Source: an uncultured Dictyoglomota bacterium (GTDB lineage Bacteria > Dictyoglomota > Dictyoglomia > Dictyoglomales > Dictyoglomaceae). From it: a stretch of 10,197 nucleotides of DNA. This document shows, one piece after another, positions 999 to 10,197 of this stretch. Location: assembly GCA_964654465.1 (NCBI GenBank), contig CAZZIO010000027.1:1-10197 (forward strand), given 5' to 3'. The notes beneath the pieces are model-generated. The model searched no databases, was not told where the DNA came from, and worked only from the letters and a program-made list of their open reading frames with translations. The position numbers and the translations under genes were made by a program. How positions within the stretch are numbered: position 1 is the first letter of the stretch; each line of letters starts with the position of its first letter.

Positions 999-1655
999 TT
1001 GCTTAGACAGAATTTCTTAGAAGAACTTAAAAAATTAGAAAACTCACTTGTAGAAATGGGCTCTACTGTAAAGGATATGCTTGAAAAAAGTAAAAAAGCC
1101 ATAATAGATAAAGATGAGGCTTTAGCAAAACAAGTTATAGATATGGATGATATTGTAGACAAATACAATTGGAGTATAGAGAACAACTGTCTCAAGCTTC
1201 TTGCTCTTCAGCAACCTATGGCTCATGATCTTAGAGTAATTGCTGCTGCAATGAAAATTATAAGTGATATAGAAAGAATGGGAGATTATTGTGTAGATAT
1301 AGCCAAATTCACTATTGAACTAATCAAGTTACCCCTATTGCCATTAAACAAAAATTTAACAAACATGTTTGAACTAGTTGAAAAAATGCTCTGTGATTCA
1401 CTGGATGCCTTTATTAACAGAGATATTAACTTTATACTAAGTGTGGTAGACCAAGATGACGCTATTGATAGAACATATTACCGAATATATGATGAGGTTA
1501 TAGAAGAGATCGAACATGCACCTGAGACTGCCCCTCAGCAAGTAAAATATCTTATGATTGCAAGATTCTTAGAAAGAATAGCAGACCATATAACCAATAT
1601 AGCAGAAAGAATATATTATATGGAAACAGGAGAATTAAAAGAGCTTCACGAATAA
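999..1655 (+). CDS. phoU: Phosphate signalling/transport regulator PhoU
   Basis: Two PhoU repeats: LALQQPMAHDLR...SDIERMGDYCVDIA and DDAIDR...RFLERIADHITNIAERIYY. TTG start with AGGAGG at 983-988. Confidence 0.96.
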   Translation: MLRQNFLEELKKLENSLVEMGSTVKDMLEKSKKAIIDKDEALAKQVIDMDDIVDKYNWSIENNCLKLLALQQPMAHDLRVIAAAMKIISDIERMGDYCVDIAKFTIELIKLPLLPLNKNLTNMFELVEKMLCDSLDAFINRDINFILSVVDQDDAIDRTYYRIYDEVIEEIEHAPETAPQQVKYLMIARFLERIADHITNIAERIYYMETGELKELHE

Positions 1656-1656
1656 A

Positions 1657-2415
1657 TTAGCCAAACTTTCCTGTAATATACTCTTCAGTAAGCTTTTTCT
1701 TTGGATTTGTAAAAATCTCAGCAGTAGGTCCTATCTCAATAACTTCTCCAAGGTACATGAATACCGTCTCATCTGATACTCTTGCTGCTTGTTGCATATT
1801 GTGAGTAACAATTATTATTGTGACTTCCTTTTTCAATTCCCTTATAGTCTCTTCTATTCTATATGTAGATATGGGGTCTAAAGCTGATGTAGGCTCATCC
1901 ATAAGTAATACCTCGGGTTGCACAGCTAAGGCTCTTGCTATACAAACTCTTTGTTGTTGCCCGCCTGATAGGCTAGAAGGATACTCCCTTAATCTATTCT
2001 TAACCTCTTCCCAAATTCCAGCAAGTCTTAAACTTCTTTCCACAATTTCATCCTTTTCTGATTTTGAAAGTCTTTTATTGTTCAAGATATATCCTGCAAT
2101 TACATTATCATAAATAGTCATATTAGAAAAAAGATTTGGTCTTTGAAAAACCATTCCAATTCTTCTTCTTACAATAACAGGATCCACATCCTTACCATAT
2201 ATATTTAAATTACCCAAAAAGATGTTACCTTCAACTCTTGCACCAGGAGACAATTCATGCAATCTATTAAAACATCTAAGAAGAGTGGTCTTTCCACAAC
2301 CTGATGGTCCAATAATAGCTGAAATATATTTCTCTTTAATAGAAAGATTAATATTTTTAAGGACATGCATAGACCCAAACCATGCATTTAAATTTTCGAC
2401 CCTTATCTTATCCAA
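1657..2415 (-). CDS. pstB: Phosphate ABC transporter ATP-binding protein
   Basis: Walker [21 protein letters not shown], signature LSGGQQQR, Walker [26 protein letters not shown] and C-terminal [13 protein letters not shown] start with GGAGG at 2424-2428. Confidence 0.97.
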
Positions 2416-2429
2416 TGCACATTCCTCCC

Positions 2430-3266
2430 TTAATGTTTTCCTTTTTTACTCGCATATATTCGGGCAATTATATTTAAAATCAAAATAATAGTAACAAGAA
2501 CAAGGGCTGATGCAAAAGCTTTATTTCTCCAATCATCATATGGAGATGTGGCATAATTAAAGATGGTTACAGTAAGGCTTCCAATTGGCTTAGTCAAGCT
2601 AAGACTCCAATATACATTATTAAATGAAGTAAAAAGTAAAGGCGCAGTTTCTCCCATAACTCTTGCTACTGCGATCATTATTCCTGTTACTATACCACTG
2701 GATGCAGAAGGAATAACCACTCTCAAAATTGTTTTCCACTTTGGCACTCCCAAGGCATAAGCTGCTTCTCTTACAGAGATAGGCACCATTTTTAAAGATT
2801 CTTCTGTAGATTTAGCTATAACAGGAAGCATTATTATAGATAAAGCTATACTTCCGGCAAGAGCTGAAAAGGTCCTCATAGGGATAACAATTATAGTATA
2901 AACAAAGACACCTATGATTAAAGTTGGAAAACTGGTAAGTACCTCTGTTAAAAATTTAGCCCACCATGCAAGCTTTCCTAAATGATATTCTGTAATAGCT
3001 ATAGCAATCATCATACCTATAGGCACTCCAATTAAAGATGCCACTAAAGTAAGAATTAATGTACCTACAATAGCATTTGCAACTCCACCACCCGGAACAC
3101 CTGGAGGCTTGGGAAGCTCTAAAAAAAGACTGAAATTTATATATCTAATACCCTTTATAAATACATCCCCTAAAATCCAAAAAAGAAATAAAGATCCAAT
3201 AAGGAATGTTATCATGCTTATGGTTAACATTACTCTATTTATTATCTTTCTTGTCCTATAATTCAT
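2430..3266 (-). CDS. pstA: Phosphate ABC transporter permease PstA
   Basis: [14 protein letters not shown] loop REAAYALG and [11 protein letters not shown]. Multiple TM segments. ATGA overlap with the pstC stop. Confidence 0.95.
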
Positions 3267-4171
3267 TCTTTAACAATCCTCTTCAATATATAGTATCGAG
3301 CAAACCCCATTATTAGAAAAGTGATTAAGAATAAAATTAAAGCGAGTTCCATAAGTACAGAAAGCTTTAACTCACCTGTTGCCTCTGCAAACTGATTTAT
3401 AATTACACTGGTTATAGTAACTCCAGGAGAGAAGAGGGATATGGATATATCATGAAAATTTCCAATTACCATAGTTACAGCTACAGCCTCACCAAGAGCC
3501 CTACCAAGCCCTAAAATTCCTGCTGCAAAAATTCCTGACTTTGCATTACCCAAAACTACCTTTGATATAACCTCCCATTTAGTCATACCAAGAGCATATC
3601 CTGCCTCCCTCTGATCCATAGGGACTGCCATTAATATCTCACGAGACAAAGAAGATATGGTTGGAATGATCATAATAGAAAGAACAACTCCAGCAGTAAG
3701 ATAACCTACTCCCATAGGATATCCTTGGAAGAATGGTAAAAATCCAAGGATTCTTTGAATAAAAGGACCTATCTTAAGTTGAAGTAAGGGAGCTAAAACA
3801 AAAAGTCCCCACATACCATAAATTAAACTTGGTATTGCCCCTAAAAGCTCAATAATAAAAGAAAAAATACGTTTTAAAAAAATAGGAGCAAGCTCCGAGA
3901 TAAATATAGCAATTCCAATACTTATAGGAAAGGCAATAAGAAGAGCAAGAAAAGATGTAACCAATGTACCATATATAGCAGGTAAAGCACCATACTTATC
4001 TGCCACAGGGTCCCATATCTTATCTATTACAAATTTAAATCCAAATTTCTTTATACTGGGGATAGAATAAATAACTAATGATATAAAGAGGGATATAACA
4101 AGAATAACAAGTAGAAGACTTGCAAAAATGGCAAGACCTTTAAAAATTTTATCTCCTATACTTTTACTCAT
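3263..4171 (-). CDS. pstC: Phosphate ABC transporter permease PstC
   Basis: WDP..KYGALPAIYGTL, IELLGAIPSLIYGMWG, REAGYALG and LGRALGEAVAVTMVIGN. The ATG at 4171 is preferred (GGGTGA at 4180-4185, 8 nt upstream); the GTG at 4183 is the alternative. Confidence 0.94.
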   Translation of the reverse strand: MSKSIGDKIFKGLAIFASLLLVILVISLFISLVIYSIPSIKKFGFKFVIDKIWDPVADKYGALPAIYGTLVTSFLALLIAFPISIGIAIFISELAPIFLKRIFSFIIELLGAIPSLIYGMWGLFVLAPLLQLKIGPFIQRILGFLPFFQGYPMGVGYLTAGVVLSIMIIPTISSLSREILMAVPMDQREAGYALGMTKWEVISKVVLGNAKSGIFAAGILGLGRALGEAVAVTMVIGNFHDISISLFSPGVTITSVIINQFAEATGELKLSVLMELALILFLITFLIMGFARYYILKRIVKE

Positions 4172-4239
4172 ATATTTCTTCACCCATAAAAACTAAACTA
4201 CCCTTATTTTAATTTTAGAAAAATCAATCGTAAAGTAAA

Positions 4240-5487
4240 TTAAAAAAATTTTAAAGTAATATCATCTAATATGTTAAAAAACAAATCCATTGTCTCCACC
4301 AAATTTTCTCTTTTTATCTTTTCTCTTGTGTCAGACTTTTGATGAAGATCAGGAATATATCCCTCTGAATCACTTCTTATAAAAAAGAAAACAGGAATCT
4401 TAAGAAGATGAAAGATATATTGATCCGAATCGGACAGATAATAATTCTCTACAAAATTTGCAGGTACACTCAATTTTTTAATATATTTCTCAGCATACGT
4501 ATTATAACCTACTATTAAGAATTTTCCCCTTCCTACACAGTCTAAATTTACATTTAAAAATATATTTTCAAGAGGAATAGGAGAATTTTCCACAAAGTAT
4601 TTTGCTCCTAAAAGTCCCTTCTCCTCTGCATTTGTCACTAAGAATAATATATTAAAAGGATAATCATTACCTTTTTCCAATATTAATTTTGCTATCTCCA
4701 TTAAAACCCCAACGCCTGAGGCATTATCATTGGCACCTGGAAAAAAGGTGTTATCAGGCTCTTTTCCCACATGATCTACATGGGCAGAAATTAATAAAAC
4801 TTTCTCACTTTTTATCTTTGATGGTACATAAAAAATAAGATTATAGGCTTTCTCTAATCTTTTATCATATTCAATCCTATAATAACCTATTACTTTTTGT
4901 TTCTTATCTAAAAGATCCTTTATATTCTGAAATATTTGAGAAGAAATATAGATTACAGGTAGATTACTATTTTGAAAGAACAAGGATTTTTCAAAAATCA
5001 ATTCCGTCATATCCTTTGGTATACCCAATATTACTCCCTTTGCACCATAAATAGAGGCAACAACCTGAGACTTCGTAACTCCATTCCTATAATCTGTAAG
5101 CCAAAAACTATCTTTAATATTTTTAACATCCCCTTCAATAGGAGCTTCTACTTTCCAGCTTCCCGAAAATCTATCTCTAAAATCTTCCCTATATTTAAAT
5201 TTCTTTAACTCCTGATTATACTTTATAGCAAATTCGGGCATATCCCTTAGCTCATAAACTTCTACAGGAAAATCTTGCAAAAAATAATTACTAACATTTA
5301 TCTTATCTAATTCCGAAGACAAAAAATTAATAGCCTCCCTATTTTCTAATGTACCTGCTTGTCTACCCATATATTTTTTATCAGAAAGTTCATAAATCAC
5401 ATTTAGTGCATAATCTCCCTTAACATAAGAAGATAAAGAGGAAATAAAAAGAAGAAAAAAGGATAAAATCAAGATTATAATTCTCAT
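4240..5487 (-). CDS. Exported M28-family zinc aminopeptidase (probable PA-like insert)
   Basis: N-terminal hydrophobic signal, GRQAGT, and metal-ligand motifs SAHVDH, GANDNASG, AEEKGLLG, NLDCVG and LHQKSD. ATGA overlap with the upstream gene. Confidence 0.88.
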   Translation of the reverse strand: MRIIILILSFFLLFISSLSSYVKGDYALNVIYELSDKKYMGRQAGTLENREAINFLSSELDKINVSNYFLQDFPVEVYELRDMPEFAIKYNQELKKFKYREDFRDRFSGSWKVEAPIEGDVKNIKDSFWLTDYRNGVTKSQVVASIYGAKGVILGIPKDMTELIFEKSLFFQNSNLPVIYISSQIFQNIKDLLDKKQKVIGYYRIEYDKRLEKAYNLIFYVPSKIKSEKVLLISAHVDHVGKEPDNTFFPGANDNASGVGVLMEIAKLILEKGNDYPFNILFLVTNAEEKGLLGAKYFVENSPIPLENIFLNVNLDCVGRGKFLIVGYNTYAEKYIKKLSVPANFVENYYLSDSDQYIFHLLKIPVFFFIRSDSEGYIPDLHQKSDTREKIKRENLVETMDLFFNILDDITLKFF

Positions 5488-7031
5488 GCGTTTGTACTCC
5501 TTTTATCTATCTCTTTAAGAAGTATCAAGGCAGAATTTAAAAGAGAATAGGTATCCATATCCTGAGGAATTGTCTGAGACTTAAATTTTTCAATGTAATT
5601 CTCTAAATCAGAGATCAAAGAATACACATCAATTTTAGGAGTAACCCTTGGAGTTATAATTTCTTTCTTTTCTAAATCTAAGGTTTGGGCATAGGTAGGA
5701 ATAATAGTCTTTCTTCCTCTAAGTTGTAATAACTGTCCAAGGGTTTGAGAAGCCTTAGGCTCTCCATGAACTATGATAAAAGTAGGATCACCTTGAAAAT
5801 TATCTGTCCAAGTTAAAAGATCCTTTTGATCTGCATGAGCAGAAAATCCATTTATGGTATGAATTTTAGCCCTAACTGTTATTTCCTCTCCCATCACATG
5901 TACCTTCCTCTCGCCATCTACAATCCTTCTTCCCAATGTCCCCTCTGCCTGATAACCTACAAAAATCAAATGGGTATTTTCTTTCCACAAATTATGTTTC
6001 AAATGGTGAAGAATTCTTCCTCCCGTACACATTCCACTTCCTGCAATAACAACTCCTATATCAAGATCATTTATACTTTTTGATTCCTCAGGAGTAGACA
6101 AAAATTTTAAATTTTTTAATTGAAAAGGGCTTATTCCTTCAAGAAAATATTTCTGAATTTCTCCCGAAAGAAGATTACTATGCCTTTCATAAACTTCTGT
6201 TACCTTTTTTCCCATAGGACTATCAAAAAATATAGGAATTTTTGTTAAGATTGGGTATTTATAGGATAAAAGCATAATTTCATATATTACCCTTTGAGCC
6301 CTATCTACCACAAAGGAAGGTATAAGTACCTTACCTCCACTATTTAAAGCATCTAAGATAACTGATTCAAATTCTTTTCTCGTATCTTCCAAAGACTTAT
6401 GAAGTCTATCACCATAGGTAGATTCAATTACTACATAATCTGCTCCCTCAATAATAGGTGGAGTTCCTTCCATTACATTGTTTTGTGGCCCTATATCTCC
6501 AGAAAAAACTATCTTAGTATTATCTCCCCATACCTCTAAGGAGGATGCGCCAAGAATATGGGCAGAATCCCTAAACCTAACCTTTATATCATTAAGATCT
6601 AACATTTCATCATAAGGCACTGGTTCAAAAAGCTTCATGGCCATTTCTACTTCTTTTTCTGTATAAAGAGGCTCTATAGGAGGCTTACCCGATCTAAGAT
6701 TTTTCCTATTTATTCTTTCCACTTCCTCTTTCATAAGTTTTACAGTATCCAGCCATAGAATTTCACAAAGTTCTATAGTAGGATAGGTAGCGTATATTTT
6801 ACCCTTGAATCCTTCCTTTACAAGCTTAGGAATCCTTCCCGAATGATCCAAATGGGCATGAGTAAGAATTACTCCAGAAATCTCCTTAGGATCAAAAGTA
6901 AAAGGTACTGCATTTTCATTTTCAGATTTTCCCTGAAATATACCACAATCTACAATATATTTCTTATTATTCTCCAAGAGAAAGCAAGAGCCTGTAACCT
7001 CGCCTGCAGCCCCTAAAAAAGTTATTATCAA
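5484..7031 (-). CDS. MBL-fold/beta-CASP ribonuclease (bacterial CPSF73/YSH1-like family)
   Basis: FLGAAGEVTGS, VDCG, THAHLDHSG, SAHILG, SGDIG, IESTYG, AGSGMCTGGRILHHL, GFSAHAD and VHGE. TTG start with GAGGGTGA upstream. Confidence 0.93.
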   Translation of the reverse strand: MIITFLGAAGEVTGSCFLLENNKKYIVDCGIFQGKSENENAVPFTFDPKEISGVILTHAHLDHSGRIPKLVKEGFKGKIYATYPTIELCEILWLDTVKLMKEEVERINRKNLRSGKPPIEPLYTEKEVEMAMKLFEPVPYDEMLDLNDIKVRFRDSAHILGASSLEVWGDNTKIVFSGDIGPQNNVMEGTPPIIEGADYVVIESTYGDRLHKSLEDTRKEFESVILDALNSGGKVLIPSFVVDRAQRVIYEIMLLSYKYPILTKIPIFFDSPMGKKVTEVYERHSNLLSGEIQKYFLEGISPFQLKNLKFLSTPEESKSINDLDIGVVIAGSGMCTGGRILHHLKHNLWKENTHLIFVGYQAEGTLGRRIVDGERKVHVMGEEITVRAKIHTINGFSAHADQKDLLTWTDNFQGDPTFIIVHGEPKASQTLGQLLQLRGRKTIIPTYAQTLDLEKKEIITPRVTPKIDVYSLISDLENYIEKFKSQTIPQDMDTYSLLNSALILLKEIDKRSTNA

Positions 7032-7047
7032 AGTATCACCCTCTTTA

Positions 7048-7848
7048 CTATTTAATTTTCCATTCTACCTGTCCACAAATGAAACATTCATGACATCTGA
7101 TACAATGAGGAGAATTAGGATCCTTATTAACCTCTATATTTACAGGACATTTTGTCTTACATAAACTACAAGAAGGACAGGTGGGCTTTACTTCTAAATG
7201 ATAAAAGGAAATTTTATTGAAAACAGAAAGGATAGTACCAAGAGGACATATAAATCTACAAAAAAGACGAGATATAAACATGGAAGAAACAATAAATAAG
7301 ATAAGAAATAGAATCTTAATGGCAAACAAAAAACCAATAAGATTTCTAAGAGGTGGATGTATTAAGACTTGAGGTATTCCTGCCTCCAAGGTGCCTGCAG
7401 GACAAAGCTTACAAAACCATGGTTCAAGAGTAAAATAGGGGATCAAAATTACAAGAATAATAAGAATACTCCATCTTATAAAAGTAGCAAATCTATTTTC
7501 TATCCTTATCTTTCTCACTGGAATTTTATAAAGAAGGTCTTGAATAAAACCAAAGGGACAAAGCCAGCCACAAAAATATCTCCCAAGAAGTAAACCCGAA
7601 AGAAAAAGAATACCAAGAGTAAAAAAGGGAAATTGATGAAGCACTATAAAATGCTGAAGAGTACCAATAGGACAAGCAAAACTTGCTAATGGACAAGAAT
7701 AACAATTAAAAACTGGCACAGGTATATGCTTACCCCAAGGAGCTAAAAAATAGGAATTCACAATAAGAAGACTTATTATCTGCCAAAGACTCCGTTTTTT
7801 AGATATACTCTTTTTCTTCATGAGATAAATTATACTACAAAAAGTCAT
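7048..7848 (-). CDS. Membrane 4Fe-4S-binding protein (NapH/MauN/YccM-like polyferredoxin)
   Basis: NCYSCP...ACPIG, GRYFCGWLCPFG, FCKLCPAG, RLFCRFICPLG, C-terminal CPSCSLCKTKCP and CIRCHECFICG, plus several TM helices. Start is either 7848 (TAATG overlap) or the ATG at 7821. Confidence 0.85.
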   Translation of the reverse strand: MTFCSIIYLMKKKSISKKRSLWQIISLLIVNSYFLAPWGKHIPVPVFNCYSCPLASFACPIGTLQHFIVLHQFPFFTLGILFLSGLLLGRYFCGWLCPFGFIQDLLYKIPVRKIRIENRFATFIRWSILIILVILIPYFTLEPWFCKLCPAGTLEAGIPQVLIHPPLRNLIGFLFAIKILFLILFIVSSMFISRLFCRFICPLGTILSVFNKISFYHLEVKPTCPSCSLCKTKCPVNIEVNKDPNSPHCIRCHECFICGQVEWKIK

Positions 7849-8963
7849 TATCTAAGCCTTTTTGAAGTATAATTATAAATCAATGTGGCAGAACTCTCTC
7901 CCTTCACCTTTACATAAAATACAAAAGTATTTTTATCTATCTTCTCATAAGAGAAATTAGAAGAAACAATCTCCACACTATCTTCATAAATATATTCCTT
8001 TACCTCTACAGTCACATCCTCCTTTTTACTATTTCTTATCTCTACTGAAACCTTTGCTTCCTTTATCTCATATTTTCCTTCAACTCTCTGCTTACTCTCC
8101 AAAACCTTTCTCTCTCCTTTTATATCAAAATCAATTCCTTGTATTACTTCTATTTTTTCTCCAACTGCTATATTGGGTATACTGCTTTCCCCTAAAAAGA
8201 TTACCTTATTTCCTACCATTTCAAAAATTTTAAGACTTCCCATAGGTATAGGAATCCCAAGCCCATTCTCTTTTTTATTCTCTATATTCCATAAAATATA
8301 AACTTTTCCATTTTGAAAAGCATATCTCTTAATAGCATTATTTATCTCTGCATCTATAATAGGGATAATTTTCGTACCCCCTTTAGCTAAACTATATTCA
8401 CCTGAAAGATCAAATAATTTATAACCTTCTACTTCTTTTAACTCTGTCTCAGAGGGAACCCGCATAGCAAGAACGCTTAAACCTTTTTCCTGTAGCATTT
8501 CCTGAGGTCCTCTCTCTATATTTATTTCCCCTGCCAAAACAGAAAGCTTTATTTTTTGAAAACTCATATCAGATTTATTTTGTAGATAAATATCAGAAGA
8601 AAATCTTAATTTATCTTTATCAATAAAAAAGGAATGAACAGCATTCCAATTAATATTTGGAAGAATATAAACAATCTTTAAAGTATCAATCATATCTTCA
8701 GAAGAATAGATAAAAATACCAGATGGAGGATACAATACCTCCAAAATTCTATTTCCCTTACTTGAATATATAAAAAAGTTCCCCGCACCTACGCTCTGAG
8801 GAACTTCATCTAAGGCTATAAAATTGACTCCTTTTGTTAGTTTTACCTCTTTTTCAAGAGATACTACAGCAAAATTTCTCTGATAAACAATTAAATTCTG
8901 AGAAAAGGAAAAGGAGAGAATAAAAAGCATAAAAATAATCAAAAATATGGATATTTTTTTCAT
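7848..8963 (-). CDS. Exported DUF4139-domain protein
   Basis: Signal peptide MKKISIFLIIFMLFILSFSFS, N-terminal LIVYQRNFAVV, W...H...LQNKS, IENKKENGLGIPIPMG and C-terminal IRNSKKEDVTVEVKE..., recognised as the DUF4139 pattern. RBS GGGGGT at 8972-8977. Confidence 0.75.
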   Translation of the reverse strand: MKKISIFLIIFMLFILSFSFSQNLIVYQRNFAVVSLEKEVKLTKGVNFIALDEVPQSVGAGNFFIYSSKGNRILEVLYPPSGIFIYSSEDMIDTLKIVYILPNINWNAVHSFFIDKDKLRFSSDIYLQNKSDMSFQKIKLSVLAGEINIERGPQEMLQEKGLSVLAMRVPSETELKEVEGYKLFDLSGEYSLAKGGTKIIPIIDAEINNAIKRYAFQNGKVYILWNIENKKENGLGIPIPMGSLKIFEMVGNKVIFLGESSIPNIAVGEKIEVIQGIDFDIKGERKVLESKQRVEGKYEIKEAKVSVEIRNSKKEDVTVEVKEYIYEDSVEIVSSNFSYEKIDKNTFVFYVKVKGESSATLIYNYTSKRLR

Positions 8964-8995
8964 TATTATTTACCCCCTATAAAGAAATTTTCTAA

Positions 8996-9006
8996 ATTAT
9001 AACATA
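8996..9006 (-). promoter_or_regulatory. Putative extended -10 promoter for the DUF4139...pstB gene run
   Basis: Minus strand reads TATG-T-TATAAT, the same TRTG-T-TATAAT architecture as 896-906, about 33 bp upstream of the 8963 ATG. Confidence 0.55.
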
Positions 9007-9011
9007 TTTTT

Positions 9012-9040
9012 ATGTCACCCACTCTTAGGATTTATTTAAT
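9012..9040 (+). promoter_or_regulatory. Possible promoter of the small-gene cassette
   Basis: ATGTCA (9012-9017), 17 bp, TTTAAT (9035-9040). These are 4/6 and 5/6 matches in AT-rich DNA. Confidence 0.3.
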
Positions 9041-9045
9041 AGAAT

Positions 9046-9060
9046 CCCAAAAGAAAGGAG
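9046..9060 (+). repeat. 15-bp direct repeat CCCAAAAGAAAGGAG, copy 1
   Basis: Identical to 9567-9581. Includes the RBS of the DUF1659 gene. Confidence 0.85.
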
Positions 9061-9068
9061 GTAAAAAA

Positions 9069-9290
9069 ATGGCAGTACAAAGTTTACCTTATAATTCCCG
9101 ACTTATTCTTAGAGTACAGGTAGGAATCCAGCAAGGAAACCCCGTATTAAGAAACAGAAGCTTCAACAATGTAAAAGCAGATGTACCAGATGAGGCAGTA
9201 TATACAGTAGCTCAAGCTTTGGGATCCCTTCAAAAATTTCCACTAGTTAAAGTTGTAAGAACCAATGATGAAGAGTTATCTGAAATCTAA
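9069..9290 (+). CDS. DUF1659-family small protein (73 aa)
   Basis: SRLILRVQVG...RSFNNVKADVPDEAVYTVAQALGSLQKFPLVKVVR matches the recalled DUF1659 pattern. ATG at 9069 follows AAGGAGGT, so the 9012 start in the ORF track is too far upstream. Adjacent to DUF2922, as is typical. Confidence 0.85.
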   Translation: MAVQSLPYNSRLILRVQVGIQQGNPVLRNRSFNNVKADVPDEAVYTVAQALGSLQKFPLVKVVRTNDEELSEI

Positions 9291-9308
9291 AAATAAGGAG
9301 GTATAAAG

Positions 9309-9539
9309 ATGGCCACTTATTCCACAAGAAAATATGTGAGAATGATATTTAGAGACAGTGGAGGAAGCAACTTTACCATAAGAATTTCTGATCCTAAGGA
9401 TGACTTAACAGAATCCCAGATTTTAAGCGCTATGGACACAATAATAAATCAAAATATATTTCAAGGAAAAACAGGAGATCTGGTAGAAAAAGTTGACGCA
9501 AGAATAATAGAAACGAATATTAGCGATTACTACGACTAA
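9309..9539 (+). CDS. DUF2922-family small protein (76 aa)
   Basis: VRMIFRDSGG..FTIRISDPKDDLTESQILSAMDTIINQNIF...GDLV...ARIIET matches the recalled DUF2922 pattern. Strong RBS AAGGAGGT. Confidence 0.85.
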   Translation: MATYSTRKYVRMIFRDSGGSNFTIRISDPKDDLTESQILSAMDTIINQNIFQGKTGDLVEKVDARIIETNISDYYD

Positions 9540-9546
9540 AATTAAA

Positions 9547-9569
9547 GGGTGGAGGTAATACCTCCACCC
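9547..9569. repeat. Perfect GC-rich inverted repeat (hairpin)
   Basis: GGGTGGAGGTA-A-TACCTCCACCC has 11-bp arms around a 1-nt centre (realistically a 10-bp stem with a 3-nt loop). It is followed by A-rich, not U-rich, sequence on the plus strand and by TTTAATTTT on the minus strand. Confidence 0.85.
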
Positions 9570-9581
9570 AAAAGAAAGGAG
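9567..9581 (+). repeat. 15-bp direct repeat CCCAAAAGAAAGGAG, copy 2
   Basis: Identical to 9046-9060. Includes the RBS of the 9590 ORF. Confidence 0.85.
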
Positions 9582-9589
9582 AGTTAAAT

Positions 9590-9820
9590 ATGTTTGAAAA
9601 CTTAGTAAAAAGAGTACAATTTAAATTTAGCTTCTTATATCAAACCTTTCCAAGCTATACATGCAAAATATGTGGCCAAAAGAAAAATTTTGTATTTTTT
9701 ATAGATGAAAATCCTGTATGTCCAGAATGTTTACCCATATTTTTTGAAAAACATCTAATCCCATTGATTATCTCAAAAGTAATAATAGGACTTGAACATA
9801 AGGAGGACAAAAATGCCTGA
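9590..9820 (+). CDS. Small hypothetical zinc-binding protein (CxxC-x15-CxxC)
   Basis: CKIC...CPEC, RBS AAGGAG about 8 nt upstream, and its end overlaps the start of the next gene by 8 bp. Confidence 0.65.
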   Translation: MFENLVKRVQFKFSFLYQTFPSYTCKICGQKKNFVFFIDENPVCPECLPIFFEKHLIPLIISKVIIGLEHKEDKNA

Positions 9821-10148
9821 AATAAATGATATTAAAATATCTAAAAACTTCTACCTTAAAGATTTTCAATGCCCATGTTGTAAAAAGGTAATAATACACC
9901 CATCTCTTCTTGATGAAATGGAAAAATTATCTGCCATGGTAAAAGGTAAAATAAAAATTACAAGTGGATATCGTTGTGAAAAACACAACAAAGAAGTAGG
10001 AGGAGTACCAAATTCAAAACATATGAAAGGACTTGCTTGTGATATCACAGCCACAGATCTACAAGAAGTATATAACATAGCAAAAAAATTAAAATTCTCC
10101 TTCGTTAAACTTGACGAAAAAAAGAAATATATCCATATGGAGGTGTAA
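9813..10148 (+). CDS. Peptidase M15A (Peptidase_M15_3) zinc peptidase, endolysin-like
   Basis: ISKNFYLKDFQCPCC, ITSGYRCEKHNKEVGG..SKHMKGLACDI (H-x6-D) and C-terminal YIH. Start is the ATG at 9813 after AGGAGG (9801-9806). No signal peptide. Confidence 0.9.
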   Translation: MPEINDIKISKNFYLKDFQCPCCKKVIIHPSLLDEMEKLSAMVKGKIKITSGYRCEKHNKEVGGVPNSKHMKGLACDITATDLQEVYNIAKKLKFSFVKLDEKKKYIHMEV

Positions 10149-10151
10149 GCC

Positions 10152-10197
10152 TTGGAAGATATATATCAATTAATAAGCAATCTTGGATTTCCTATAG
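10152..10197 (+). CDS. YvrJ-family small membrane protein (holin-like), 5' portion, truncated by the window end
   Basis: GGAGGT (10139-10144), then TTG at 10152: MEDIYQLISNLGFPI. The I.N.GFPI start is characteristic of YvrJ, which typically accompanies DUF1659/DUF2922. Not in the ORF track. Confidence 0.75.
   Translation, partial: MEDIYQLISNLGFPI

Follow-up and report, generated by a model that had tools for sequence, protein, structure and literature searches.

Does a run of small genes that joins a phage-like peptidoglycan peptidase to a small membrane protein in a thermophilic bacterium represent the remnant of a virus or a resident system of the cell, and what do the genes ahead of the peptidase contribute to it? 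The window analyzed in this study is the whole contig CAZZIO010000027.1 (C27; 10,197 bases) of a 1.91-Mb assembly (32% G+C, 72 contigs), and the host is a member of the thermophilic family Dictyoglomaceae, since the close homologs of its DUF2922 protein are assigned to Dictyoglomus or Dictyoglomaceae. The cassette in question consists of five co-oriented, densely packed open reading frames (ORFs) on the plus strand, from position 9069 to the end of the contig; no overlapping contig that would continue this 3' end was found among the rest of the assembly. We regard the cassette as old, resident, and chromosomal and not as a mobile element. For its function we give about even weight to a two-part organization, in which a heterodimer similar to SroA and SroB (SroAB) of Staphylococcus aureus is encoded first and is followed by a hairpin and then by a phage-lysis-like pair that would serve regulated cutting of the wall. 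The features of the cassette are as follows.

9013-9044, plus strand: candidate promoter and/or operator, with a core that is invariant in 10 of 10 family genomes.
9057-9061, plus strand: Shine-Dalgarno sequence of the DUF1659 gene.
9069-9290, plus strand: DUF1659 protein, 73 aa, isoelectric point (pI) 8.1, soluble, SroA-like (PF07872, E 3e-24); an 18-nt gap to the next gene.
9309-9539, plus strand: DUF2922 protein, 76 aa, pI 4.7, soluble, SroB-like (PF11148, E 2.9e-24); a 50-nt gap to the next gene.
9547-9569, plus strand: GC-rich hairpin (stem of 10 bp, loop of 3 nt) that follows the stop codon of DUF2922 and precedes the ribosome-binding site for the zinc-ribbon protein.
9590-9820, plus strand: zinc-ribbon protein of 76 aa (CxxC...CxxC) whose C-terminal helix is moderately hydrophobic; an 8-nt overlap with the M15 start.
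9813-10148, plus strand: signal-less M15A/LAS-type zinc peptidase, 111 aa (PF08291, E 9e-18); a 3-nt gap to the next gene.
10152-10197, plus strand: first 15 codons of YvrJ, with a TTG start, cut by the contig end and corresponding to the N-terminus of its orthologs.

The initial annotation, which had been made from the letters of the DNA and had taken the cassette for a minimal lysis, export, or virus-like module, described this layout accurately; i.e., the five small co-oriented ORFs and their gaps of 18, 50, -8, and 3 nt were all reproduced, and a Shine-Dalgarno sequence of the GGAGG type precedes every start. Three of the Pfam families named there were likewise recovered in the window by profile search. 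DUF1659 matches PF07872 with 85.1 bits over profile positions 1 to 72 of 72 (curated cut-off, 24.1 bits), DUF2922 matches PF11148 with 85.2 bits (curated cut-off, 25.5 bits), and the peptidase matches PF08291 (Peptidase_M15_3) with 64.8 bits. YvrJ was recognized by way of the sister genomes: the 15-codon stub scores 12.9 bits (E 0.68) against PF12841, for which the curated cut-off is 29.5 bits, and it aligns with the conserved N-terminus of full-length orthologs of 48 to 52 aa, one of which is YvrJ with 65.2 bits (E 3.7e-18).

The first two proteins appear to be related to each other and to bind each other. A profile-profile comparison of DUF1659 with DUF2922 (hhalign; E 5.7e-6, probability 85%, 42 columns) indicates, at the level of sequence, that the two families are paralogs. 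The proteins carry opposite charges (pI 8.1 and 4.7), and neither has a hydrophobic segment. The AlphaFold2 model of DUF2922 takes a small β-β-α-β fold with a predicted local distance difference test score (pLDDT) of 80.7. Structure prediction, which the initial annotation had put forward for the DUF pair, yielded a predicted heterodimer with an interface around two helices; the interaction prediction score from aligned errors (ipSAE) is 0.77, the best control gives 0.00, contact agreement among the runs is 100%, and the pLDDT of the partners is at least 84. Of 80 solved complexes, 58 reach the mark used for such predictions, as do 2 of 110 mismatched pairs; this calibration holds only roughly here because the model was built on our own alignments. 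According to this model, DUF1659 and DUF2922 most likely form a heterodimer. Searches with the fold and the profiles gave little further guidance: nothing above background was found for the DUF2922 model by Foldseek against PDB (best E 0.1, phage phi29 p56) or BFVD (best E 0.025), a wide fold search with VIA-align was uninformative (best Z, 4.5), and the profiles of both families matched nothing among the solved structures below E 0.07. DUF1659 has a weak match to PHROG 20302, which is of unknown function.

The predicted heterodimer agrees with a pair described in S. aureus. In the accessible part of a preprint (bioRxiv 10.1101/2022.10.19.512975), SroA (DUF1659) and SroB (DUF2922) form a bicistron that is the top target of the extracytoplasmic function (ECF) sigma factor SigS and is induced by it about 1000-fold; an interaction of the two proteins was seen by two-hybrid test, and SroA stabilizes the sigS mRNA, acting inside the cell. 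So far as that part of the source goes, the likeness is close, in that two adjacent genes of about 70 codons stand in the same order with a GGAGG site in the short spacer and both family assignments match. Of the properties of an SroAB-type pair, adjacency is present here and partner binding is supported by the complex model, as it is by the two-hybrid test in S. aureus. The hairpin after the second gene here also fits the bicistronic transcript there. On the other hand, the S. aureus pair is described alone in that part of the preprint, whereas YvrJ follows the pair here and in 67 of 201 genomes of a second, Bacillota-like phylum (see below), often with a hydrolase. In addition, the cassette here has no sigma factor gene beside it; seven ORFs of the sigma-70 family are present in the genome, none of them adjacent. 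Stabilization of mRNA is a role reported for the S. aureus pair.

What separates the DUF pair from the genes behind it is the hairpin. A hairpin after DUF2922 was found in 10 of 10 family genomes, with a stem of 9 to 11 bp whose sequence varies while the pairing is kept. Folded singly, these sequences have folding energies of -18 to -22 kcal/mol and z values of -2.4 to -5 against dinucleotide shuffles; single-sequence folding was used because the loop lengths differ, so that RNAalifold recovered only 4 stem pairs on a MAFFT alignment. Because the T-run lies on that side, the hairpin scored as terminator-like on the minus strand only. In the Bacillota-like phylum, a strong hairpin is present in 21 of 29 testable spacers after DUF2922, and a number of these are canonical terminators, the T-run being on the coding strand. 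The presence of a hairpin in both phyla means that the DUF pair is regularly set apart from the downstream genes. We regard the hairpin at 9547-9569 as a candidate partial terminator or stabilizer of a transcript end; it is consistent with a bicistronic transcript of the sroAB type and suggests that expression of the lysis-like genes is attenuated or gated. Taken together with the intracellular action on sigS mRNA described in the accessible part of the SroAB preprint (bioRxiv 10.1101/2022.10.19.512975), the conserved hairpin favors a regulatory role of the DUF pair over its export.

A second conserved element lies ahead of the DUF1659 gene. It consists of the 10-mer TGTCRCCCA[CA] at 9013-9022 and an A/T-rich block ending in TAATAGAA at 9031-9044; in the alignment of the 10 family genomes, the core shows no variation, unlike the rest of the spacer. 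On this conservation of sequence, 9013-9044 is a candidate promoter and/or operator. The 10-mer occurs three times in the 1.9-Mb genome and is paired with the second block only here; with three occurrences, it was ruled out as a regulon motif in this genome. The upstream motif was not found ahead of 38 cassettes in other phyla. Some RNA evidence comes from one metatranscriptome run that held 5% of the sampled words and whose contigs belong to a relative about 90-95% alike. A single 494-nt contig in it covers both DUF1659 and DUF2922 (9063-9536), and the zinc-ribbon gene and M15 are on separate contigs. No contig in that metatranscriptome bridges the hairpin, although contigs are blind to transcript ends and levels, and DNA was possibly present in the library.

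The downstream half resembles the lysis genes of phages. The M15 protein matches PHROG 894, labeled endolysin, with an E value of 5.9e-28. The metal-ligand motif of M15A/LAS peptidases is H-x6-D ... H, and the residues Arg54, His70, Asp77, and His108 are invariant in the 7 sequences compared. The closest solved structure to the M15 profile is the Streptomyces zinc D-Ala-D-Ala carboxypeptidase 1LBU (E 5.5e-8), the match of the profile to the solved L-Ala-D-Glu endopeptidases is weak (E 0.054), and a single-sequence phmmer search of the solved chains gave no detectable match. Given the invariant metal ligands and 1LBU as the closest solved relative, the M15A assignment made initially is sound, and the sequence makes the protein a probable peptidoglycan peptidase. 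The YvrJ ortholog matches PHROG 4898, labeled holin (E 8.6e-11). It has one strongly hydrophobic segment at residues 7 to 23, followed by a helix-prone tail, and is a candidate small single-pass membrane protein and holin-like partner of the peptidase. The M15 protein, which has no hydrophobic N-terminus and hence no signal, is encoded 3 nt from this membrane protein. The proposal that the two behave like an endolysin-holin pair is supported by the PHROG labels and the signal-less enzyme. The pair is not located in a phage or prophage late region, as neither the window nor the flanks in sister genomes contain phage genes.

The same association recurs outside the family. Among 401 genomes sampled around this one, DUF2922 was found in 23, of which 13 lie outside Dictyoglomaceae, in 8 other families. 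We annotated 14 loci, namely the 13 non-family loci and a second copy in the family genome G006, and recognized YvrJ in 5 of them and a peptidoglycan hydrolase in 6 (GH108, Amidase_2 with SLH twice, GH73 glucosaminidase twice, and M15_3); one locus ends at a contig edge right after DUF2922, and two have a protein with only Sigma70_r2 downstream. In the Bacillales-like loci L054 and L055, a true ComK gene lies downstream, with an ECF-like sigma gene convergent to it. A further 201 genomes were sampled from the phylum of one of the non-family genomes, which we call Bacillota-like on account of its ComK, and were searched whole for the Pfam families. DUF2922 is present in 102 of them, YvrJ in 85, and both in 79. 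Of 124 DUF2922 matches, 74 (in 67 genomes) are followed by YvrJ on the same strand at a distance of 44 to 1437 nt, and 73 of 107 YvrJ matches are linked to DUF2922 in this way. Every second one of the 67 linked genomes was taken for closer inspection, which gave 34 loci; DUF1659 is directly upstream of DUF2922 in 31 of these, and the four ORFs that follow DUF2922 include an Amidase_2 gene in 13, an M15_3 gene in 1, and a polysaccharide deacetylase gene in 2. An ECF-like sigma-70 gene is directly upstream on the same strand in 6 of the 34. The co-occurrence of YvrJ and wall hydrolases with the DUF pair, on which the initial annotation depended, therefore extends to other genomes, and the window holds one Dictyoglomaceae version of a very widespread cassette, which we would place among the chromosomal systems derived from holins and endolysins.

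Small hydrophobic proteins directly after DUF2922 were also seen in some of the annotated loci (L050:6655-6912 and L060:3550-3795 / L061:7272-7517). One such protein has 85 aa with several hydrophobic stretches, and another has 81 aa and, judged by eye, may resemble the LL-H-type holins.

Across these loci, the class of the hydrolase near the DUF pair and YvrJ is exchanged. M15_3 is found in the window, L058, and L139; GH108 in L049; GH73 glucosaminidase in L056 and L057; and Amidase_2 in L050, L052, and the 13 sampled loci already mentioned; in viral contigs, the place is taken by phage endolysins. An N-terminal hydrophobic segment is absent from all 21 of the 21 genomic hydrolases linked to the cassette. 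Six of the 21 carry SLH or SPOR wall-binding domains and, being signal-less, must act outside the membrane without Sec export. The replacement of the hydrolase class with retention of YvrJ is the pattern expected if YvrJ gives access to the wall whatever bond is cut. By analogy, the combination of a signal-less, swappable hydrolase with YvrJ is the logic of a holin-endolysin system. As in phage holin-endolysin cassettes, a small membrane protein stands beside a signal-less muralytic enzyme of interchangeable class, and the genes are tight or overlapping. The cassette differs from them in that it is non-phage, single-copy, and chromosomally conserved, that lysis is inferred here from the genes, and that YvrJ has one hydrophobic segment in 48 to 52 aa, with relatives that also occur in phage head modules.

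Such a resemblance raises the question of descent. A decayed prophage or cryptic mobile element, of which the five genes would be the surviving lysis end or which they would represent as a minimal virus-like element, is to our judgment highly improbable. All four recognizable families do have PHROG counterparts. However, the 1.2-kb cassette stretch is present in 9 of 10 family genomes at 69-92% DNA identity, and all five genes occur in identical order in 8 of 10 (tblastn), a recurrence beyond chance; in the ninth genome (G002) the contig ends inside M15, and the tenth (G004), which gave no match, is only 72% complete. The gene order is kept across three genera at 61-97% protein identity, with DUF1659 orthologs being 68-94% identical. 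When copies per genome were counted, the cassette proved to be single-copy here, as are DUF1659 and DUF2922 individually. The flanks vary between genera; one complete sister genome, for example, has a Nramp transporter gene downstream of the cassette. In the downstream flanks of two complete sister genomes, no family of integrases, terminases, capsid proteins, or replication proteins was found, and the earlier remark that the window has no integrase, terminase, or recognizable capsid gene was upheld by Pfam, in which no such family matched within the window. In the Bacillota-like phylum, moreover, about every second sampled genome has the cassette, mostly in one copy.

A YvrJ relative was found in 37 viral contigs, of which 20 non-redundant ones were examined after near-identical duplicates and 13 weak matches had been dropped. 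In 6 of the 20, the YvrJ relative is directly before an endolysin, which supports the reading of YvrJ and the hydrolase as a holin-endolysin pair. Local profiles detected neither the DUF pair nor the zinc-ribbon protein within 5 kb of the YvrJ relative in any of the 37 contigs, tblastn searches with YvrJ and DUF2922 against 50,697 phage records gave no match, and a DUF2922 pattern scan of the viral contigs, which is an insensitive one, gave 45 pattern matches, none of which was confirmed. The initial interpretation is thus supported in part only, since the description of the locus as a tiny cryptic element or virus-like module is not supported: the cassette is single-copy and chromosomal in three genera, its flanks change, it is accompanied by no replication, integration, or capsid genes, and its DUF pair was not detected within 5 kb of the YvrJ relative in any of the 37 viral contigs.

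A sign of movement is nevertheless present in G006, where a second, diverged copy (L049, G006:C1:315500-329700, about 5470-9150) encodes DUF1659, DUF2922, a GH108 lysozyme, and YvrJ. GH108 takes the place of the zinc-ribbon protein and M15, and no zinc-ribbon gene is present. Because this copy sits between a type I restriction R subunit gene and an IS21 IstB-like ATPase gene, the module was probably transferred as a unit at least once, which speaks for a mobile element.

The ends of the cassette have some further peculiarities. In the complete sister genome G001 (L020, about 5700-8050), an array of repeated short ORF motifs resembling clustered regularly interspaced short palindromic repeats (CRISPR) lies between YvrJ and Nramp. 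A comparable cause may be why the contigs of this assembly and of G002 both stop at the 3' end of the cassette. In this assembly, Nramp is on contig C53, behind a 178-aa ORF.

A resident cassette with a signal-less hydrolase might also serve export without lysis, as in the type 10 secretion system of Serratia, in which, according to the portions of the sources available, the holin ChiW is combined with ChiX, an L-Ala-D-Glu endopeptidase of the LAS family (PMC5778951; PMC10109510). YvrJ and M15 would then form a non-lytic export route with the DUF heterodimer as its cargo, e.g., a surface, signaling, or inter-cell factor; this is the stronger form of what the initial annotation had proposed. 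The likeness to type 10 systems, as far as these portions describe them, lies in a chromosomal, putatively holin-like protein and a LAS zinc peptidase near genes for signal-less proteins. In favor of this reading, the cargo-like products are small soluble proteins that lack a signal and are encoded directly upstream. No other element is conserved as well as the DUF pair, and its position before the hairpin probably makes it the one with the highest expression. The class of the hydrolase can be swapped with the rest unchanged, and the described systems pair a holin with a LAS-family L-Ala-D-Glu endopeptidase such as Serratia ChiX (PMC5778951, in the part available). Unlike ChiX in these sources, however, the M15 protein is closer to D-Ala-D-Ala carboxypeptidase (5.5e-8) than to L-Ala-D-Glu endopeptidases (0.054); the host phylum also differs, and a secreted cargo is here only a candidate, namely the DUF pair. 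Against export there is further the action inside the cell on mRNA stability that the accessible part of the preprint reports for SroA and SroB (bioRxiv 10.1101/2022.10.19.512975), the lack of YvrJ in 23 of 102 genomes with DUF2922, and the lack of a recognized downstream hydrolase in 20 of 34 linked loci; extracellular DUF proteins are a supposition, and the fold searches were uninformative. We consider type-10-like export of the DUF pair unlikely.

Several observations weigh against a device in which the DUF pair controls wall cutting by a holin-like YvrJ and its hydrolase. First, the hairpin may be the boundary between two separate transcription units that adjoin each other only because they are regulated in common. 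Second, the DUF pair is more than a mere component of a lysis device, because 23 of the 102 DUF2922-bearing genomes are without YvrJ, and SroAB reportedly works without one in the part of its description that is accessible. Third, the 20 of 34 loci without a recognized wall hydrolase within four ORFs downstream of DUF2922 (one of which, L111, has an Amidase_2 gene upstream instead) imply a role of YvrJ that is independent of an adjacent enzyme. Fourth, the PHROG label "holin" is an annotation, and membrane permeabilization by YvrJ is predicted by analogy; in 11 of the 20 viral contigs, the YvrJ relative is beside portal, terminase, head, or virion-structural genes, a head-morphogenesis context that the holin reading does not explain, and two of the 20 contigs show both lysis and head contexts. 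Fifth, M15/LAS and Amidase_2 families include cytoplasmic members, and the signal-less Amidase_2 and M15 proteins without wall-binding domains could be cytoplasmic recycling enzymes. Finally, this genome has neither an adjacent sigma factor gene nor an adjacent ComK-like gene. The YvrJ gene was seen between portal/terminase and major-head/protease genes in the IMG/VR contigs L062, L069, L071, L072, L079, L082, L083, and L091.

An alternative is an envelope-stress or regulatory module that works without lysis. In it, the DUF proteins would act together as regulators, with YvrJ as their sensor or anchor in the membrane, and the peptidase, placed in the cytoplasm or near the membrane, would trim muropeptides for recycling or signaling. 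Consistent with such a module are the SroAB literature and, in the part of the source available, the inclusion of Bacillus subtilis yvrJ in the SigO-RsoA acid-stress regulon (PMC8103513), as well as the ECF-like sigma gene directly upstream in 6 of 34 loci, the frequent occurrence of YvrJ without a hydrolase, and the cytoplasmic members of the M15/LAS and Amidase_2 families. The B. subtilis protein belongs to the same Pfam family, and its dedicated sigma control, as described there, parallels the ECF-like sigma genes by these 6 cassettes; B. subtilis differs in having YvrJ but neither DUF family over the cut-off, whereas YvrJ is tied here to the DUF pair and a peptidase. On the other hand, the six linked signal-less hydrolases with SLH or SPOR domains are sensible only outside the membrane, GH108 and GH73 enzymes act on intact glycan strands, and in 6 of 20 viral contigs an endolysin gene comes right after the YvrJ relative. 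In view of these, a purely non-lytic module seems rather unlikely to us.

We infer all the functional steps of the favored arrangement, i.e., an SroAB-like heterodimer ahead of a hairpin and a lysis-like pair, as follows. The DUF1659-DUF2922 heterodimer would probably be the regulatory or sensing half. A dedicated signal would fire the conserved upstream promoter or operator, in keeping with the ECF-like sigma and ComK-like genes beside the cassette in other genomes and with the SigO-RsoA control of B. subtilis yvrJ (PMC8103513), and the DUF pair would be made in excess because most transcripts would stop or be stabilized at the hairpin. Read-through would yield the zinc-ribbon protein, M15, and YvrJ at a low, gated level. 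YvrJ would locally permeabilize or pass the membrane and let M15 reach the wall, where it would trim stem peptides or cross-links, and the outcome would be controlled wall remodeling, limited autolysis, or release of cell contents. A narrower proposal is that the DUF heterodimer itself is the switch at the RNA level, acting as an antiterminator or transcript stabilizer that gates read-through of the hairpin into YvrJ and the hydrolase; we regard this as quite unlikely. If true, it would make the cassette a self-contained chromosomal "lysis or export timer" common to Bacillota-like bacteria and deep-branching thermophiles, and it would assign a role to all three uncharacterized families in one step.

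DUF1659, DUF2922, and YvrJ are families without an accepted function that occur in some half of the genomes sampled from a major phylum and in deep-branching thermophiles, and their linkage, pairing, hairpin, and hydrolase swapping lead to a testable model of regulated breaching of the wall from inside the cell. If the model is true, holin-endolysin and type 10 systems have in this cassette a relative that is very common and does not belong to phages, and the model would help to account for the effect of the S. aureus pair on stress survival and virulence. A full-text search of the openly available literature did not find the linkage of the three families, the paralogy and pairing, the hairpin, and the hydrolase swapping together; within the same scope, one source alone names both DUF families (bioRxiv 10.1101/2022.10.19.512975), without mention of YvrJ in the part accessible. 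What is new here is the paralogy of DUF1659 and DUF2922 with their predicted heterodimer, and the conserved hairpin or terminator before the lysis-like genes in both phyla.

The zinc-ribbon protein is probably an accessory of the peptidase or of YvrJ, e.g., a chaperone or inhibitor, and it is the weakest part of the model. Its ORF gives only a sub-threshold match to Zn_ribbon_8 (17.2 bits against a cut-off of 34.4 bits). The mean column identity over 9 orthologs is 81%, and the protein has hardly any relatives outside the family: among 1.84 billion representatives, HMMER found a single one below E 1e-10, besides a protein of 61 aa at 5e-4; a protein-atlas search found unnamed clusters only. 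The AlphaFold2 model (pLDDT 71) shows a long helix of moderate hydrophobicity behind the zinc ribbon. The overlap of its stop with the M15 start suggests that the translation of the two is coupled. In 5 of the 34 loci of the Bacillota-like phylum, a small protein with two CxxC pairs is encoded between DUF2922 and YvrJ, but homology of the Dictyoglomaceae protein to these positional counterparts was not demonstrable (hhalign E 0.048, probability 1%). The counterparts share a conserved DR and GD (L106:3116-3379, L110:3875-4096, L116:2991-3236, L125:2884-3120, and L128:3891-4202).

Many loci of the Bacillota-like phylum have a further companion, a conserved family of proteins some 200 aa long, hardly recognized by Pfam, which follows the cassette and in two further loci lies between DUF2922 and YvrJ. 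Members include L109:2395-3006, L122:4108-4728, and L135:2432-3034 and also L111:2961-3413 and L120:2876-3409. The family was aligned from 15 ORFs, one of them apparently in a wrong frame, and is weakly ComK-like: Pfam ComK matches 2 of the 15 members (best E 1.2e-5), and hhalign against true ComK gives an E value of 7.5e-4 with a probability of 25%. This family was not found in the Dictyoglomaceae genome, in which a marginal match to the ComK profile (G000:C32:110332-110511, L140; 22.6 bits, just over the cut-off) falls inside a 368-aa ORF.

The genes upstream of the cassette in the window are on the opposite strand, and the nearest of them is its divergent neighbor.

7848-8963, minus strand: 371-aa protein with a hydrophobic N-terminus and a sub-threshold match to DUF4139.

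This DUF4139-like gene adjoins the cassette in two genera but not in the third and is therefore probably outside it. PADLOC defense models gave 0 matches against 6 proteins. The other opposite-strand genes upstream encode a Fer4_5 membrane protein, a β-CASP metallo-hydrolase, an M28 peptidase, and ABC-transporter/PhoU proteins. In the left part of the window (999-4183), PhoU, an ABC ATPase, and two permeases form a phosphate-transport-like set that is apparently ordinary.

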